Below, one piece after another: positions 6,332 through 41,668 of a DNA stretch of 43,104 nucleotides. The translations under genes and the position numbers were made by a program. Positions within the stretch are counted from its first letter, which is position 1. Every line of letters starts with the position of its first letter. The stretch lies in assembly GCA_018238625.1 (NCBI GenBank), contig JABCSY010000026.1, positions 1 to 43,104 on the forward strand, in the 5' to 3' direction. Origin of the DNA: Promethearchaeota archaeon. Its GTDB lineage: Archaea > Asgardarchaeota > Lokiarchaeia > Sigyniarchaeales > SOKP01. Below the pieces are notes generated by a model, which did no database searches, was not told where the DNA came from, and worked only from the letters and a program-made list of their open reading frames with translations.

Positions 6332-6341
6332 GTGTTAATTT

Positions 6342-7268
6342 ATGAGTACTGAATTTAATATTGGTTTTGATTATTCCCACAAAAACAAGTTAATAATAGA
6401 AGATCCTGGATTTAATGACTTTATTGAGTTTCTATTTAATTCAGATTTAAAACTGGGAAAAATTGAAGCGGGAATTACCTACGAAAAATTATCTGCTTAT
6501 AATGTATTTATTATTGGTGTTCCAATTGCTGAATCATATCTAACTCCGGAAGAGATTGAGGGTTTATTGAAGTACGTTAAAGATGGAGGGTCTCTTTTAA
6601 TTATCAACGATAAAGGAGGAGACTATGACAATAAAAATAATTTATCCGAGCTAACAAAACATTTTGGAATCAAATTCAACCACGATCAGCTATTTGATAA
6701 CGAAGATTTTTCGAAAGATAATTCGCGTCCAATAATTAAACAATTCAAAAAACACTTTATAACTCGAGATATAACTCAAATTATTCATTCTGTTGGCTGT
6801 ACTTTAGAGGTTGATAAATCAGTTGAAAATGAAGATATTGATGTTAGCGCAGTCGCACTCTCATCTGAGGAATCTGCTTGGCACAAATATTTTGATGGAG
6901 AAGAATGGGTTGATGAACCTGTTAAAAGCTTACCAATAATCGCTATCGGACATTATGGCATGGGAAAAACCGTAGCTATAGGGAACTTGTCTCTTTTTTC
7001 TGGCTTCCACGATTCATACGGTATTCACGCTGCTGACAACTTCAAATTAATATCTAACGTAATCTCTTGGCTTATGAACAAAGCTCATTCTCAAGAAGCG
7101 CAATTATCGCAACCCATATACACGGCTATCCCCATTGAACAAGATTTATATTATTGGATAAAAGAAAAACTCGACGAAGGACGATGGAACACCGTAGAAG
7201 AAATCGTTAACTTTGCGCTTAAAGTAGTTAAATTTAGAATGAGAAAGCAAGATCCTCAAGAAGAATAG
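6342..7268 (+). CDS. GIFT/DUF4350-like (class I glutamine amidotransferase-like) domain protein with C-terminal ribbon-helix-helix-like segment
   Basis: EEIEGLLKYVKDGGSLLII, NLSELTKHFGIKF, GMGKTVAIGN and DNFKLISNVISWL fit the GIFT/IFT52/GldG fold. C-terminus IYTAIPIEQDLYYWIKEKLDEGRWNTVEEIVNFAL resembles CopG/RHH. Confidence 0.7.
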   Translation: MSTEFNIGFDYSHKNKLIIEDPGFNDFIEFLFNSDLKLGKIEAGITYEKLSAYNVFIIGVPIAESYLTPEEIEGLLKYVKDGGSLLIINDKGGDYDNKNNLSELTKHFGIKFNHDQLFDNEDFSKDNSRPIIKQFKKHFITRDITQIIHSVGCTLEVDKSVENEDIDVSAVALSSEESAWHKYFDGEEWVDEPVKSLPIIAIGHYGMGKTVAIGNLSLFSGFHDSYGIHAADNFKLISNVISWLMNKAHSQEAQLSQPIYTAIPIEQDLYYWIKEKLDEGRWNTVEEIVNFALKVVKFRMRKQDPQEE

Positions 7269-7940: not shown

Positions 7941-8646
7941 TTATGGGCTTTCCATAGCTTTACCACTCAATTTCTTGTAGTGGTTAAGCACAGCTTGTCT
8001 GGCAGCATATACAAACGCTCTTTTTACGTTAACTCCCGTAATAGCGATAGTTTCGTAAATCAAGGTGTGGTCCATCTTGGCGGTATCTAAAACTTGTCTA
8101 ATTTTTGATATCTCGACGATGTCTTCAAGATCTCTCTTGTTGGCTAACACTACCAGAGGTACTTCTGGTGGGTCAAATGGGGCTGGTGGAATTAACTTAT
8201 CACCGTAAAACTTCAATAGCTCTTTTAAAGACCATATATTCTCTCCCCAGTTATCCCTATGCTCGGAATTCGAGAAAGGATTGATCGATGAGAGAATCAA
8301 AAGTGAAGATTACGGCATCGGTACCCTTCAGAACGGTCTGGCGTTGAAATTTGTGTCTGCGCTGGCCAGCAACAGTATATACTTGAAAAACTACATTAGA
8401 TACTCTTGCAACTACCCGATCAAAAAACAAAGTTCGTCCAGTAGGGTCTTGGATTTGCTGCATTAAATGGAAGATTCAAAAATTAGAATCTTCTGTCACC
8501 TGAAGCTAAACCCTCTCTATGATAGACCCATTCTAAAGCCGTTGTTTTACCACCTAAGCTTGGCCCGTAGAAGCAGATTGACTTTTCTGGCTCGAACTGA
8601 ACCCAGACTTAAAGACCAAGGTTCCGTCACCTCTACGTGATGGCAT
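7941..8646 (-). CDS. MglA-family small GTPase, 204 aa after removal of three BHB introns; exons 8646-8609, 8579-8495, 8463-8281, 8249-7941
   Basis: Spliced product MPSRRGDGTLVFKICFYGPSLGGKTTALEWVYHREGLASGDMQQIQDPTGRTLFFDR...YTVAGQ...LKGTDAVIFTFDSLIDQWGENIWSLKEL...LANKRDL...ETIAITGVNV carries intact MglA-type G1 (GPSLGGKTT), RTLFFD, G3 (TVAGQ), G4 (NKRD) and G5 motifs. RBS GAGGTG at 8660-8655. Confidence 0.9.
8250..8280 (-). other. Relaxed BHB-type intron 3 (31 nt) in GTPase gene
   Basis: mRNA UUCUCUCAUC-GAUC-AA^U-CCU..CUCG(aauuc)CGAG..AGG-GAUA-AC^U-GGGGAGAGAA: central helix 3/4 paired, long exon-exon outer helix. Removal gives LIDQ-WGEN. Confidence 0.8.
8464..8494 (-). other. BHB-type intron 2 (31 nt) in GTPase gene
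   Basis: mRNA GCUUCA-GGUG-AC^A-GAAGAUUC(uaauuuuu)GAAUCUUC-CAUU-UA^A-UGCAGC: perfect 8-bp inner stem, central helix GGUG/CAUU with 2 GU pairs, two 3-nt bulges. Removal gives ASGD-MQQIQ. Confidence 0.85.
8580..8608 (-). other. BHB-type intron 1 (29 nt) in GTPase gene
   Basis: mRNA GGU-CUUU-AA^G-UCUGG...CCAGA-AAAG-UC^A-AUC: Watson-Crick 4-bp central helix CUUU/AAAG, two 3-nt bulges, inner hairpin. Removal gives VFK-ICFYG. Confidence 0.85.
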
Positions 8647-8669
8647 TCATGTTTCACCTCTATAATTAC

Positions 8670-9135: not shown

Positions 9136-9144
9136 CGAATCTCT

Positions 9145-9392
9145 TTAGTAAAAGGGGTTATGATATTGAGTATTTTCTTGAGAATATATGGTTCTTTCCT
9201 TAATTTCCTTATCGATCAATCCTCCGCGTTTATTCAAGCGAGAAGTTCTCCCTATTCGATGGATATAATTCTCTGGGAACTTTGAAATGTCGTAATTGAA
9301 AACATGCGAAAAATTATTGATATCCAAACCTCTAGCTGCAACATCTGTGGCAATGAGTAGGTTAATCTTATGTGCTTAAAAGCTTTTAAAAT
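9145..9392 (-). pseudogene. Diverged duplicate of the 3' end of the DEAD-box helicase gene (23364-23669)
   Basis: Nucleotide match by eye to 23364-23669 ([11 protein letters not shown]...[10 protein letters not shown]...[10 protein letters not shown]), with an internal ~54-nt deletion and scattered substitutions. Confidence 0.9.
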
Positions 9393-23200: not shown

Positions 23201-23363
23201 CGAATTTTAATTCGTTGAGGATTCTTTCTTTAAATTCTTATTTTTAAGAAATAAATAATATTTTCAGAATATAATTATTAAAAACCTTAGTATCATTTGA
23301 CATACTTTTTATTTAGCCTGAAACTAAAATATAAAACAATTCTATATAACAATCTGTTTAATG

Positions 23364-24515
23364 TTAATAAAAGGGGTTATGATATTGAGTATTTTCTTGT
23401 CGAGAAAATATTGTTCTTTCCTTAATTTCCTTATCGATCAATCCTTCGATGTGGCAAAGATATTCGTATTCGTCTTTTAAACAGAGCGTAATTGCAACTC
23501 CGCGCTTATTCATGCGAGAAGTTCTCCCTATTCGATGGACATAATTCTCAGGGTATTTTGGAATGTCGTAATTAAAAACATGCGAAATGTTATTGATATC
23601 CAAACCTCTGGCTGCAACATCTGTGGCAATGAGTAGGTTAATCTTATGCGCTTTAAAAGCTTTTAAAATTTTCTCTCTTTGATGTTGAGACAAGTCTCCA
23701 GAAATGAGATCCACGTTATATATGAAATTATCTAACGACTTTAACCTCTTGACTAACCAAGCCGCAGTTCTCTTCGTGTTCACGAAGACTAGAAGGTGAT
23801 CTGGTTTTTCTCTCCTCAGTATTTTAAGGAAAGTTTTCAGTTTATCTCCATATCTCTCAATCAGATAATAGAACTGTTTTGTATTTCCAACAGTTAAATC
23901 ATCTCTGCTTAAGTTTAAAAATTCGAAACTATTTTTCGAATATTGTTTCACTAATTCTCTGATTCTGTTATCAAAGGTCGCAGAGAATAGCATGAATTGG
24001 TATTCTGAATGAATTTGGTTTAAAATGTATTTCACATCTGGTGTGAAACCCATGTCAAACATTCTATCAGCTTCATCAACGACAACAAACCTAATTTCAT
24101 TTAATCTTAACTTTCTTCTTTTGTACAAATCAATTATTCTTCCAGGAGTTCCAATGATAATACTTATGCCGTTTTCTAGTTTATTTATTTGATTATTTAT
24201 AGAAACTCCGCCATAAATCGGAAAAGCTTTGACTCTTGAATTTCCCAAATCTCTAACTACTTCGTATATTTGATTTGCTAACTCTCTCGTTGGAACCAAG
24301 ATTAGAGCTTCGTTACGCGTAAATTTAAGGTTTTCTATTATTGGAAGTATAAAAGCTAAAGTTTTGCCACTACCCGTTCTCGCTTGAGCCATTATGTTTT
24401 GACCCTTTAAGATTAGAGGTATAGCTTTTTGTTGGACAGGCGTGGGTTTATTAATGTTGATTTTTTTTAACGCGTTAGCGTTATGTTCGTTAATTCCTAA
24501 TTCTGTAAAGTTCAA
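23364..24515 (-). CDS. DEAD-box RNA helicase
   Basis: Q motif, ARTGSGKT, PTRELA, TPGR, DEAD, SAT, ARGLD, HRIGRT. Confidence 0.96.
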   Translation of the reverse strand: MNFTELGINEHNANALKKININKPTPVQQKAIPLILKGQNIMAQARTGSGKTLAFILPIIENLKFTRNEALILVPTRELANQIYEVVRDLGNSRVKAFPIYGGVSINNQINKLENGISIIIGTPGRIIDLYKRRKLRLNEIRFVVVDEADRMFDMGFTPDVKYILNQIHSEYQFMLFSATFDNRIRELVKQYSKNSFEFLNLSRDDLTVGNTKQFYYLIERYGDKLKTFLKILRREKPDHLLVFVNTKRTAAWLVKRLKSLDNFIYNVDLISGDLSQHQREKILKAFKAHKINLLIATDVAARGLDINNISHVFNYDIPKYPENYVHRIGRTSRMNKRGVAITLCLKDEYEYLCHIEGLIDKEIKERTIFSRQENTQYHNPFY

Positions 24516-24646
24516 TTTATTTGTTCACTAAAAATATCTTTCTTTTCTCACTCTAAATCGAGTAATTAAATTATTTGTGAAAGATAAACTTTTCTAAAAT
24601 TCTGATTTTTGATAAAAATAGTGTTTTGAATTAATTTAATATACAA

Positions 24647-26803
24647 TTAAATCTTAAAAACAACTTCTTTGGTCAAGCTATCGAGTTTCATTAACTTTTG
24701 GTAGATAAAGGTTCTAACCTTCTCAGGAGTTATTTTTGGGTTGTTGAATACTAAATCTTGTACTACGGTATGATATTTCTGGCTTTTTTTTGCCAATTTT
24801 CTATGGAGGTCATTCTTGTCGTCGTATAATGGTATTGGAAAAGAGAAAGGTCTTTTATGAATGTGTCTACTCGATTTTATGAGCTTAATGTTTTTCGAAA
24901 GTATTGGAGAATTGAAAATTGCCGATAAATAATGCGCCTCGTTCTGTGAATCGGTGGAATAATAGTAATTTTCTGAACAAATAACTATTTCCTTTTCTTC
25001 GTTATCGATAACTGCCGATTTCAGACGGGAACCACTCGCGTTGTATACGACGATATATTGTTTATTATTAATTTGTTTCGTTAATTTATTCCAATAATTC
25101 AAATTTGAAAAAAGATTATCGATCTCGCTCGTTTCTGCTTTGTTTTCTTGGTAAAATTTATTAAGCTCATTGTAAAATTCTAAAGCTCTTGGATTATTCT
25201 TAAGGAAGGTCTCATCGAATTCAAAATTCTCGTTAATTGGCAAAAAAACGCGTTTAAATCGCTTTATACTAAATGGTATTAAATCTTTGTTTAAAAAAGC
25301 CTTAAAATTGAATTTGTTTTCAATTATTTTATTTTGAAAAGAATACCTCCAATTTTTCTTAGCGCGTAATTTAACTTCAGGATCGGAAGAAATCTGTAGA
25401 TATTTTTCATTTTCTTCGTCTATTTTAAAGAATACAAGCGCTCGAGGTACCAAAGTCGCCCCTTGAAAGAACTTACGCCTGTATTGACTTTCTGAAAGCG
25501 CATTTAAGAACTTTAGATCTTGTTCTGGTAAAATAATTTTTGCTCCCTTCTCGTCGAATGCTAAGCTAGAGTAAGTTGTTGTCCGCTGAAGTTCAAGAAT
25601 GCTATCGTAAATTTTAGTCTTAATTGGATATTTTTCGGAAATTGGAATTTCCGAACTTCTACCGATATATTTCGCTTTTAGACAGATATGCTCTACGTTA
25701 AAGAAATAATTGTTAGGAAAATCCCAAATTTCAATCTTATTAAAAACTGAAAACGCGCGGAACTTATAACAATGATCTCCGTTTAAAATGCTCTTAGTAA
25801 GAACAAAGAATATGCTTCCTCCAATTTTTAAGAATGCTAGAGGGATCGCGTAAAAGAAAACTGCTGCTAGTTCAATGTGGGTTATGTATTGACTTTTGGG
25901 TTTAATTCCTAATGTTTCAGATAGCGTTCTAATCTTTATTTGATACTCCTTATTGATAATGTCTTTATAAGTTAACCACGGAGGGTTTCCAATAACTAAG
26001 TCAAACGATTGATAAAGCTCCGATAAATTTACCTTTAGGTTTTTTTTGTTCTGGTCGGGAAAAAGAGCGTTTATTAGAAAAATATTTATTTTGGGGAGTT
26101 TATCATTTTCTGCATCGTAATAATCGAAAAGTAACAATAATATATTTACCTTAGCTGTTAAAGTTGCTAATAGGTTAATATCAAAGCCGTAAATATTTTC
26201 AATCGCATTAAATTTTACATTTTTTTTAGCGTTGGAATTGAGGATTTTAATAATGATCTCTATTAAAAAACCACCAGAACCGCAAGATGGATCTAAAGTC
26301 TTTGCTCCCATTTCGTAAAAATCGTCAATCATTTTTTTAGCAAGTTCAGGTGGAGTATAAAATTCTCCTAATTTGTGCCTTGTTATAATAAAGAAAACTT
26401 GCTGATACAATTTTTGGAAGAGATCGTGATAAGCAAAACGAGAATCTTTTAACAATATGTGTATCTGGTTAATAACATCTTTTTTGAGATCTGGACAAAA
26501 AAAATATTCTAATTCACTCAAGTTATGATCATGATAATAATTTTTAAAACTTTCTTTTCCTTGAGCATTTAATTTTCTCGCTACTAAAAGCTTTAGAATA
26601 AGTGCGAAATAGGAATGTTTTAGAAAAAGAGAATGATCAATATCATTTCCATAAATGCGCTTAAAAATCGATTTCCAAAGCCGATATTTCTTTTGAAACT
26701 CTAATTCGACTATTTTCGCTTGTTTTTCAAGAAAATTAGTGATCTCGCTATAAATATTTGAGCCTATTCCAAATAGTTCAGAAATCTTTTTTGAATCAAT
26801 TAT
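24647..26803 (-). CDS. N6-adenine DNA methyltransferase (type IIG/IIL-like MTase plus target-recognition domain, no evident nuclease)
   Basis: GEFYTP, LDPSCGSGGF, GFDIN, IGNPPW. Frame is open upstream of 26521 to a stop at 26807-26809 (W..IYG...LF.KHSYF..ILK), implying an ATA/ATT start near 26803/26800. Confidence 0.85.
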   Translation of the reverse strand: MIDSKKISELFGIGSNIYSEITNFLEKQAKIVELEFQKKYRLWKSIFKRIYGNDIDHSLFLKHSYFALILKLLVARKLNAQGKESFKNYYHDHNLSELEYFFCPDLKKDVINQIHILLKDSRFAYHDLFQKLYQQVFFIITRHKLGEFYTPPELAKKMIDDFYEMGAKTLDPSCGSGGFLIEIIIKILNSNAKKNVKFNAIENIYGFDINLLATLTAKVNILLLLFDYYDAENDKLPKINIFLINALFPDQNKKNLKVNLSELYQSFDLVIGNPPWLTYKDIINKEYQIKIRTLSETLGIKPKSQYITHIELAAVFFYAIPLAFLKIGGSIFFVLTKSILNGDHCYKFRAFSVFNKIEIWDFPNNYFFNVEHICLKAKYIGRSSEIPISEKYPIKTKIYDSILELQRTTTYSSLAFDEKGAKIILPEQDLKFLNALSESQYRRKFFQGATLVPRALVFFKIDEENEKYLQISSDPEVKLRAKKNWRYSFQNKIIENKFNFKAFLNKDLIPFSIKRFKRVFLPINENFEFDETFLKNNPRALEFYNELNKFYQENKAETSEIDNLFSNLNYWNKLTKQINNKQYIVVYNASGSRLKSAVIDNEEKEIVICSENYYYSTDSQNEAHYLSAIFNSPILSKNIKLIKSSRHIHKRPFSFPIPLYDDKNDLHRKLAKKSQKYHTVVQDLVFNNPKITPEKVRTFIYQKLMKLDSLTKEVVFKI

Positions 26804-27005
26804 TTTTTATCTTCTCTTCAGTTGTTTTTTATAATAACTATCCGTAGAAAATAAATTAAACTTATCTATAGAAAAATACCAATATTCTAAATAGAGTAGA
26901 AATATTTATATTAAGTATTGGAATTTATAATAATGTTCAAAATTATCTAACTAAGATTACTTAACCAAAATTGACAAAAAAAAAAATAAAAAAAATGTTT
27001 TTAAC

Positions 27006-40584: not shown

Positions 40585-40813
40585 TTCAATAATCTCTGGC
40601 TTTTAATTGATCTATTTATTATTCTTTATTTAATATAAAATAAAAGTTTCGAACTTAAAAATTTATATTATTCAATTATTAGGTTAAATCGTTTTAAAGT
40701 TTAATTAAAACTCATTAAAAAATTAATTAAAAAATTAAATAAAAGAATAAGGTTAGAGAAAAATTCTAGAGATAATTGATACTCCGCTTCAGTTATTGGA
40801 GGTTCTGCGTAGC

Positions 40814-41668
40814 TTATGTTTTTCCTTCGAGCTGTGTTTTTATTTGGTTTTTTAAAATTTCTTTCTTAGATTTATACTCTACTTTAACGTCCATAGGTCC
40901 ACTTGTATGTTTAAGAAATTCTATTGCTAATATCTTTCCATTCTCCGACAAAATTCTTGGAGAATAATCTTCGGCAAAAAATACTCCTTCTGGAATGGCT
41001 CCAACCTTAGAGATCTCCTTTGATACTTGTTTTTTGCCCAAAAACGTTTGAACTCTTTCGACTACTGAGTATGCGTGATTCCCGATGATAATTAATTCTC
41101 TTTCAAATCCATCAGGTATTTTAATGGCTTCTAATTTTTGCATAATTTCGTTAAAATCCACGTGCGTTTCGTCTTGCATAAGCGTAGAAAACGAGTCCTT
41201 ACCAGTATATAAAGGTCCTGTGTTCTGAGTTGATCTATCTCTGGATCCGGCTATATTCATTCCCGCTGCAGGTTCAGGGGTCCCAAATACATTTTTCTCT
41301 CTTAAAGGATGCACTGCTGGACCAGCTCTAGCTGCTACTGGTTTCTCTTCGGCTTTAATCTCCTTTGCTATACCTCCTTCGGTCTTTCCACCAATTAATT
41401 TTATAAAATCTGGGTCTTCTTCTCCCTCGTCGAGAGGAACAACCCCAAAATGCATTCCTACCTGACCGCGTATATCTTGGCTACGTTTCGCACCTATAAA
41501 CTTCGATCTAACATTACTCTCAATGCCTTTCCACAAATAAACTTTACGGTATTCGTCAGAAACTATTACGTAACATTCAGCCGTATTTAGAATGTCTTTT
41601 ATAGGACCTTCCGTTTTGTTCTCTTCCGTATTTCCATCTGGCAAAATTTTAAAAACTTGAGTTCCCAT
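40814..41668 (-). CDS. Single gelsolin-domain protein with C-terminal extra domain (1DGelX-like)
   Basis: LNTAECYVI...VYLWKGIESNVRSKFIGA...DEGEEDPDF is a gelsolin repeat; linker followed by a second globular domain. Confidence 0.85.
   Translation of the reverse strand: MGTQVFKILPDGNTEENKTEGPIKDILNTAECYVIVSDEYRKVYLWKGIESNVRSKFIGAKRSQDIRGQVGMHFGVVPLDEGEEDPDFIKLIGGKTEGGIAKEIKAEEKPVAARAGPAVHPLREKNVFGTPEPAAGMNIAGSRDRSTQNTGPLYTGKDSFSTLMQDETHVDFNEIMQKLEAIKIPDGFERELIIIGNHAYSVVERVQTFLGKKQVSKEISKVGAIPEGVFFAEDYSPRILSENGKILAIEFLKHTSGPMDVKVEYKSKKEILKNQIKTQLEGKT

Follow-up and report, generated by a model that had tools for sequence, protein, structure and literature searches.

In the HAC1/XBP1 system, a mini-intron is excised from mRNA by a protein enzyme, its removal shifts the reading frame and the exons are joined by an RtcB-type ligase, with Ire1 making the cuts at twin stem-loops. 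The splicing endonuclease cuts instead at bulge-helix-bulge (BHB) motifs, after the second base of each bulge, and Watanabe 2002 is said to be the work cited for an intron of this type in the gene cbf5. According to the accessible sections of a later report, the BHB intron of the cbf5 pre-mRNA is spliced in Crenarchaeota belonging to Desulfurococcales and Sulfolobales (PMC2738675). The mRNA of HVO_1309 in Haloferax volcanii carries a BHB intron in its 5' UTR that is cut by the endonuclease in vitro and in vivo, and in the sections available of that report cbf5 was named, as of 2020, as the sole other mRNA case besides this leader (PMC7714728). The tRNA genes of Asgard archaea, as presented in the accessible text of a preprint, are heavily interrupted, with multiple and non-canonical introns (10.64898/2026.10.13.758758). 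A 2026 review of non-canonical splicing covers archaeal BHB splicing for tRNAs only, and a literature search, with most subscription journals outside its reach, turned up nothing on BHB introns inside protein-coding genes of Asgard archaea.

The locus presented here is a small GTPase gene with several putative BHB introns. Whereas HAC1/XBP1 is a proven switch operated by Ire1 at twin stem-loops, the GTPase transcript would be cut by a predicted tRNA endonuclease at BHB motifs. It resembles cbf5, as far as the accessible sections of that report go, in having a tRNA-type BHB intron within coding sequence, a hetero-oligomeric EndA, and lineage-specific presence and loss (PMC2738675). Unlike cbf5, which has one intron at one position, the GTPase gene has three in the window and up to four in relatives, at 14 positions across the family, and it differs further in intron size (mostly 28-33 nt), in presence/absence differences between sister species and in belonging to a different phylum (Asgard). 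With HVO_1309 it shares the use of an mRNA as substrate for the splicing endonuclease, the cut being proven for HVO_1309 and predicted for the GTPase; the available description of HVO_1309, however, places its single intron in an untranslated leader and not in coding sequence (PMC7714728). The Asgard tRNA introns are alike in organism, BHB motif, enzyme, multiplicity of positions and repeated, apparently independent gains, but they interrupt tRNA genes and not a protein-coding gene, and the word 'mRNA' is absent from the preprint text that was accessible (10.64898/2026.10.13.758758). What is new here is the multi-intron hot spot, a rare multi-intron protein gene in a prokaryote; the single BHB intron (cbf5) is known.

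The window, that is, the whole 43,104-nt stretch of DNA that was analyzed, is contig C77 of genome G000 (4.29 Mb, 201 contigs, 98% complete, 7.6% contamination). Minus-strand reading and DNA alignment identified positions 7941-8646 as an MglA-like GTPase gene broken by three inserts of 29, 31 and 31 nt, with the following parts:

8655..8660, minus strand: Shine-Dalgarno-like GAGGTG upstream of the start codon, read from the sequence
8609..8646, minus strand: exon 1, 38 nt, with start ATG at 8644-8646, coding MPSRRGDGTLVF and part of K13
8580..8608, minus strand: intron A, 29 nt, an indel versus intron-less orthologs, BHB fit with 4/4 pairs in the central helix (H)
8495..8579, minus strand: exon 2, 85 nt, with the P-loop GPSLGGKT and the TAG at 8554-8556 that ends the unspliced frame
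8464..8494, minus strand: intron B, 31 nt, an indel versus intron-less orthologs, canonical hBHBh'
8281..8463, minus strand: exon 3, 183 nt, with the switch regions RTLFFD and TVAGQ
8250..8280, minus strand: intron C, 31 nt, an indel versus intron-less orthologs, BHB with one mismatch
7941..8249, minus strand: exon 4, 309 nt including the stop TAA at 7941-7943, with NKRD and the C-terminal half

Four open stretches, spread over three different frames, make up this region, and taken singly they yield weak Ras/Arf matches only. Using the last stretch as query, orthologs were retrieved from 30 of 41 related genomes, mostly as one unbroken frame of about 205 aa; orthologs use the same start codon as ATG 8644-8646 and keep GAGGT 6-8 nt 5' of it. 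In a DNA alignment of 18 same-genus loci, the window corresponds to the uninterrupted loci plus three clean insertions. The insert limits and the lengths of 29, 31 and 31 nt (none a multiple of 3) given in the first-pass annotation, which had been made from this DNA alone, match the alignment with same-genus orthologs exactly, and its placement of the inserts relative to the P-loop, the RTLFFD region and the DS strand holds as well: intron A falls within codon 13, ahead of the P-loop, intron B after codon 41, ahead of RTLFFD, and intron C after codon 102 (FDSLIDQ/W, the slash marking the site). Joining exons 8609-8646, 8495-8579, 8281-8463 and 7941-8249 yields 615 nt and 204 aa. The spliced product is approximately 99% identical to the protein of a sister species (G020), the ortholog of which is uninterrupted; three residues differ, two of them at junction C, and the last 98 residues are identical. 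Without splicing, the frame from ATG 8646 gives 30 aa and ends at TAG 8554-8556, the exon 2 stop that had been claimed for it. As deduced from ORF limits, removal of intron A alone leads to a stop in intron B (TAA 8483-8485), and removal of A and B to a stop in intron C (TAG 8257-8259).

The inserts were compared against a BHB template that reads, from 5' to 3', outer helix h, a 4-nt strand of H, a 3-nt bulge, the inner hairpin h', the other strand of H, a 3-nt bulge and h, with the 3-4-3 geometry described in the accessible text of the Asgard tRNA preprint (10.64898/2026.10.13.758758). In intron A, the central helix pairs CUUU (8611-8614) with AAAG (8582-8585) at 4/4, the bulges are AA/G and UC/A, with the slash at the cut, and 5 bp, together with some additional pairs, form the inner hairpin. 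In intron B, an outer helix of GCUUCA (8501-8506) with UGCAGC (8457-8462; 5/6 bp) precedes a central helix of GGUG (8497-8500) with CAUU (8466-8469; 4/4), bulges AC/A and UA/A, and an inner hairpin of 8 bp. The central helix of intron C, GAUC (8283-8286) with GAUA (8252-8255), has 3/4 bp owing to a G.A mismatch, with bulges AA/U and AC/U, and its exon-exon outer helix pairs 8287-8297 with 8238-8248 at 10/11 bp. The inner hairpin run at the base thus spans 3-8 bp in the window introns and the outer run 2-3 bp, extended in C to the 10/11 bp just given; across the first 11 family introns these values are 0-9 bp and 0-3 bp, yielding several relaxed forms. The cuts predicted after the second bulge base coincide with the exact indel boundaries versus intron-less orthologs and restore the frame, and no BHB fit was obtained with shifted insert boundaries.

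Unconstrained folding gave z-scores of -2.70 for B, -1.76 for C and +0.53 for A, which folds no better than its shuffles. Since only B folds significantly, the case is built on template fit and cross-species comparison and not on folding energy. A central helix of 4/4 was present at the indel-defined sites of 9 of the first 11 inserts in the genus, and one of at least 3/4 in all 11. The chance of a 4/4 helix is 0.024 per random genomic position and 0.154 for the best of 7 shifts, and 9 of 11 corresponds to a binomial P of ~2e-6. Two earlier proposals are supported by this fit beyond chance at indel-defined sites, namely that the inserts are tRNA-like introns and that the three share size and fold, each being 29-31 nt long with an internal hairpin and a match to the BHB template. 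The pairing is also kept up between species. At site B, six species give 24 central-helix cells, of which 23 are paired, and one double compensatory change (U-A to C-G) combines a synonymous GGT-to-GGC change in the exon with a matching change in the intron; over the 10 counted pairs of the central and outer helices, 86.7% of cells pair, versus 21.7-63.3% with the partner slid. At site C, the central helix pairs in 18 of 20 cells in five species, double changes occur once in H and once in the outer helix, and 80% of cells pair over 15 counted pairs, versus 40-52% when slid. The covariation score was reached by 78 of 500 shuffles for site B and by 16 of 500 for site C, so that with few sequences the support from covariation is modest.

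Based on the fit of sequence to template and on the comparison with orthologs, the three inserts are very probably BHB mini-introns of the MglA-like GTPase pre-mRNA, removed by EndA and RtcB. In the proposed mechanism, each of the three mini-introns and its flanking exon bases would fold into a bulge-helix-bulge, EndA (probably an alpha/beta heterotetramer here) would cut after the second base of each bulge, and RtcB would ligate the exons into the 204-aa frame; we infer the occurrence of splicing, EndA and RtcB as its agents, and its efficiency. According to the available part of one study, Asgard EndA belongs to the (alpha-beta)2 class, with a loop linked to broad specificity (PMC5829648). 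The window's genome encodes two EndA-domain genes (PF01974; 97.7 and 73.8 bits) and one RtcB (PF01139; 556.8 bits), all over cut-off; the EndA paralogs map to the regions G000:C58:7294-7518 and C7:25627-25875, and RtcB to C24:7978-9285. A rival reading is that the ribosome skips the inserts by programmed translational bypassing, known from gene 60 of T4 and from the byp elements of yeast mitochondria, and the inserts do resemble byp elements in their ~30 nt and their hairpins, with AAGTC at both ends of intron A as a conceivable pair of take-off and landing sites. A hop between these repeats, however, adds a residue absent from all orthologs, the take-off and landing codons are unmatched at B (GAC versus TTA) and C (CAA versus AAC), and the staggered 3-nt bulges, the 4-bp helix and the compensatory changes are left unexplained, making bypassing very improbable in comparison with removal by EndA and RtcB.

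The protein restored by splicing contains both the P-loop (GPSLGGKT) and NKRD. In an intact ortholog, Pfam identifies Arf (38.4 bits) and Ras (32.4 bits), both above cut-off, and NCBIfam a sub-threshold small-GTPase match only. Among PDB sequences, the top four hits are all MglA, from Myxococcus and Thermus (E 1.2e-22 to 2e-21), and Rab7 comes next at 5e-9. The nearest relatives of known structure are the MglA proteins from Myxococcus xanthus (PDB 5ymx; E 1.2e-22) and Thermus thermophilus (PDB 3t12; E 2e-21). The replacement of D-x-x-G-Q by T-x-x-G-Q in switch II is a hallmark of MglA. The switch regions of MglA line up with RTLFFD and TVAGQ, the latter standing opposite TVPGQ of the 5ymx chain; the P-loop is common to MglA and the window protein, and RTLFFD and the T-x-x-G-Q of switch II are common with that chain. 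This kinship is distant, the best chain scoring 83.7 bits with about a third of residues identical by eye. By sequence, the product classifies as a conserved MglA-like small GTPase, nearer to MglA than to Rab or Arf. The neighbors examined were a metallophosphoesterase, a GIFT/DUF4350-like protein and a helicase fragment. The second of these, a 309-aa ORF at window positions 6339-7268 on the plus strand, matches the IFT52 GIFT domain (E 2e-10, above cut-off), with DUF4350 below the family cut-off; the IFT52 GIFT match represents an intraflagellar-transport-like domain in an Asgard archaeon.

Gene callers would report a gene with three frame-breaking inserts as fragments, and the locus could accordingly be read as a decaying pseudogene that has accumulated insertions. 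The six interrupted copies in the genus, however, are all open once the inserts are removed, contain no other frameshift or stop, and show dN/dS of 0.013-0.049 at dS 0.5-1.3 versus their nearest relatives, while all inserts but one, of 45 nt, measure 28-33 nt and their BHB fit is far beyond chance. Open frames and purifying selection exclude the pseudogene reading, which we regard as very improbable, and by the same sequence comparisons the interrupted copies are to be seen as working genes under strong purifying selection that need insert removal. An assembly or sequencing artefact might be suspected in a fragmented metagenome-assembled genome (MAG) of 201 contigs with 7.6% contamination, all the more as several MAGs break contigs within the gene. 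Yet all three inserts are spanned, with 2 mismatches each, by contigs of run X2 (records 9 and 12), which comes from a separate DNA study, and comparable inserts occur in 16 separately assembled genomes; an artefact is thereby excluded, and is the least probable of the readings considered. The one clear RNA run (X19) contributed two contigs that cover exon 4 only (7943-8178), none extending across introns or junctions, and one of the two, with 14 mismatches, probably comes from a relative. Run X17, probably DNA, contains an intron-less relative.

Orthologs were compared within the genus, in other families of the order and across the family. Within the genus, 29 of 42 genomes have an ortholog, 28 of these complete, and six copies are interrupted: at sites A, B and C in the window's genome (G000), by four inserts in G011, at site C in G018, at site A in G019, and within the P-loop by inserts of 30 nt in G047 and 32 nt in G053. 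In other families of the order, 12 orthologs were examined and every one is uninterrupted. Scanning public genomes brought six more inserts, in five additional species, each being the single solution with H at 4/4 that keeps the protein; an A at the first bulge base was a further demand of that filter. Family-wide, 135 genomes were searched, 104 of them having a match at E <= 1e-26, and further inserts, two of them by hand, were resolved in G094, G074, G110, G086 and G150. The family total is 30 inserts in 16 of the 104 matched genomes, with none found in the remaining 88. Their sizes are 29 nt (four), 30 nt (15), 31 nt (seven) and 28, 32, 33 and 45 nt (one each), and H is 4/4 in 22 and 3/4 in eight. 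For the 19 later inserts, boundaries were set to maximize pairing while keeping the protein; since they were chosen for pairing, these inserts illustrate the pattern and are not an unbiased test of it. An A stands two bases before the 5' cut in 29 of the 30 inserts, the exception being position 157 of G074, although six of these 29 do not count as evidence because the filter demanded the A. The G074 ortholog (G074:C10:23151-24480) also contains the 45-nt BHB insert, after CDS nt 133, with H at 4/4 and an inner stem of 5 bp, the other 29 inserts being 28-33 nt long. In the G077 ortholog (G077:C95:3344-4595), the first ~19 codons align with no other copy, possibly owing to a replaced 5' end or a larger insertion.

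The 30 inserts occupy 14 positions, with 5' splice sites after CDS nt 26, 38, 58, 70, 103, 123, 133, 157, 182, 204, 210, 225, 306 and 315. None of the 14 lies beyond nt 315 of the 612-nt CDS, for which the chance is ~9e-5 if positions are uniform and independent; the 3' half was searched equally, and the exon 4 half of the gene had no intron in any species examined. Throughout the family, the GTPase gene forms a hot spot whose 14 positions are confined to the 5' half of the coding sequence. Intron-poor eukaryotes show a 5' intron bias, for which cDNA-mediated loss is the usual explanation. The 5'-half restriction seen here recalls that bias and makes the cDNA-loss idea testable in this system, where precise intron loss through cDNA would perhaps explain the restriction.

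The first-pass annotation had interpreted the three introns as an AND gate, in which they would be selected regulatory devices, complete splicing would gate GTPase output and a polarity/motility switch would be coupled to EndA/RtcB activity. The frame logic of that proposal stands, since all three removals are needed for full-length protein and retention of any one intron leads to a stop. It also has on its side the specificity of the hot spot versus two control genes, the location of all 14 positions in the 5' half, so that unspliced products are short, and the analogy with XBP1/HAC1, where RtcB-type ligation of a frame-shifting mini-intron serves as a switch. Regulation, on the other hand, is not supported. 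Introns are absent from most orthologs, no insert having been found in the 88 matched genomes noted above in spite of a nearly identical protein, and close relatives differ in intron presence. Orthologs that do without inserts and encode nearly the same protein indicate that the introns are dispensable for function. Moreover, the 15 inserts of 30 nt, half of those resolved, are in frame, so that frame-breaking is no general property. G094 has three in-frame inserts and a single TAA in its match, so no more than one of them can contain a stop. That most relatives can dispense with the introns speaks against a conserved regulatory role, and the gate is in our judgment unlikely. The introns are most likely dispensable passengers, near-neutral or selfish, that are gained, lost and shuffled by recombination.

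The concentration of introns in a single gene, also proposed beforehand, was examined in control genes and in synteny. The convergent neighbor encodes a 180-aa metallophosphoesterase; matches to it in 109 of the 135 genomes include none lengthened by ~30 nt, and a paralogous MglA-like GTPase, present in 93 genomes, had no such insert. Several paralog matches were considered as interrupted copies and rejected: the partial matches in G019 and G063 are contig ends, that in G007 is a truncated extra copy, and the paralog at G000:C6, flagged for an internal TGA, proved intact. Over the ~27 kb that can be aligned with the sister contig, indels of 29-31 nt within genes occur only in the GTPase gene. 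With none in the phosphoesterase, the paralogous GTPase or the syntenic stretch, the claim of concentration is upheld, and the GTPase gene is strongly enriched in mini-introns relative to the controls, although uniqueness is not claimed. Three scans of the G000 genome for BHB-like inserts joining two open frames showed no enrichment relative to a wrong-frame control (for example, 326 candidates against 324 in the control with H of at least 3 and a hairpin of at most -5 kcal/mol, and 144 against 136 with H of 4 and at most -3 kcal/mol). The third scan recovered intron C, which over-strict filters had led the first two to miss. As noise ran from tens to hundreds, the power of these scans is low and their result is compatible with dozens of introns elsewhere. 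Beyond the GTPase gene, the window has ~14 kb of extra DNA versus the sister contig (G020:C61), which separates the GTPase gene from one for a DEAD-box helicase. At window positions 9143-9392, the 3' end of the helicase gene recurs as a partial copy of 250 nt with 77% identity, encoding a Helicase_C fragment of 76 aa, and the match to the intact helicase starts at 23356 (about 23356-26808). The extra DNA may be an integrated element that duplicated the end of its target.

To trace the history of the inserts, the first 11 introns were compared in all 55 pairs. Introns A, B and C had been described as unlike each other, and no pair among them is indeed found within the 12 best of the 55. The two best pairs are same-site introns of different species (sites C and B). 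The same-site score was reached by 2 of 2000 shuffles for site C, 42 of 2000 for B and 84 of 2000 for A, the pair of which lies outside the 12 best; this likeness is partly forced by pairing with shared exon bases. At the same time, sites B and C bear quite different hairpins in other species. Taken together, same-site likeness and differing hairpins suggest that both inheritance or transfer and repeated gain at favored sites occur. Mapping the introns on a tree of orthologs, a check that the first-pass annotation had put forward, revealed a scattered presence, each interrupted copy having intron-less close relatives.

Exons 1 and 2 of the window gene are 87% and 79% identical to those of G019 and 87% and 78% to those of G011, versus 68% and 67% for G020, whereas exons 3 and 4 are 91-94% identical to the intron-less G020. 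Such a mosaic, G019/G011-like in exons 1-2 and G020-like in exons 3-4, suggests that the three window introns were probably brought together by recombination and not by three insertions in the lineage of the window. The proposal that the three are independent insertions concentrated in one gene is hence retained in part: introns at different positions do look independent, but introns at the same position are the most similar, and the window trio was probably assembled by recombination.

A blastn-short search of the 11 introns against the genome, tRNA genes included, returned chance matches of 11-19 nt only. The lack of an intron copy elsewhere gives no support to a repeated mobile element or to a tRNA-intron source, and reverse splicing as the origin of the introns is speculation. 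ARAGORN identified 19 tRNAs in G000, 11 of them with introns of 5-35 nt, which are too few and short to compare usefully with the window introns. A total of 19 tRNA genes in a 98%-complete genome suggests that many are hidden by multiple or non-canonical introns. The sole reverse-transcriptase-like match in G000 (G000:C147:7762-8184, minus strand) lies in a 590-aa open frame, with RVT_1 at 31.8 bits, just above cut-off, and with one such ORF a cDNA-mediated gain or loss of introns is conceivable.

More speculatively, the GTPase gene might be a place where mobile BHB mini-introns still land and are exchanged in Promethearchaeota, with ongoing gain, precise loss and recombination across species, in which case its protein output may be limited by tRNA-splicing capacity; we consider this broader scenario possible but doubtful. 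If true, it would be the first prokaryotic protein-coding gene with a eukaryote-like multi-intron structure and population-level intron polymorphism. Independently of that scenario, gene callers will report genes of this kind as fragments or pseudogenes, the locus would indicate that protein enzymes can splice an mRNA at several sites in Asgard archaea, which of all archaea stand nearest to eukaryotes, and sister species that differ in intron presence provide a natural setting in which to study how introns are gained and lost in a prokaryote. Several MAG contigs end inside the GTPase gene (G045:C81, G097:C27, G134:C144, G131:C94 and G103:C16), that of G045 exactly at junction C, and intron presence/absence polymorphism within populations may be what breaks assemblies there. 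Elsewhere in the window, positions 40769-40819 are a 51-nt insertion versus G020, of in-frame length, within a block of 90% identity.
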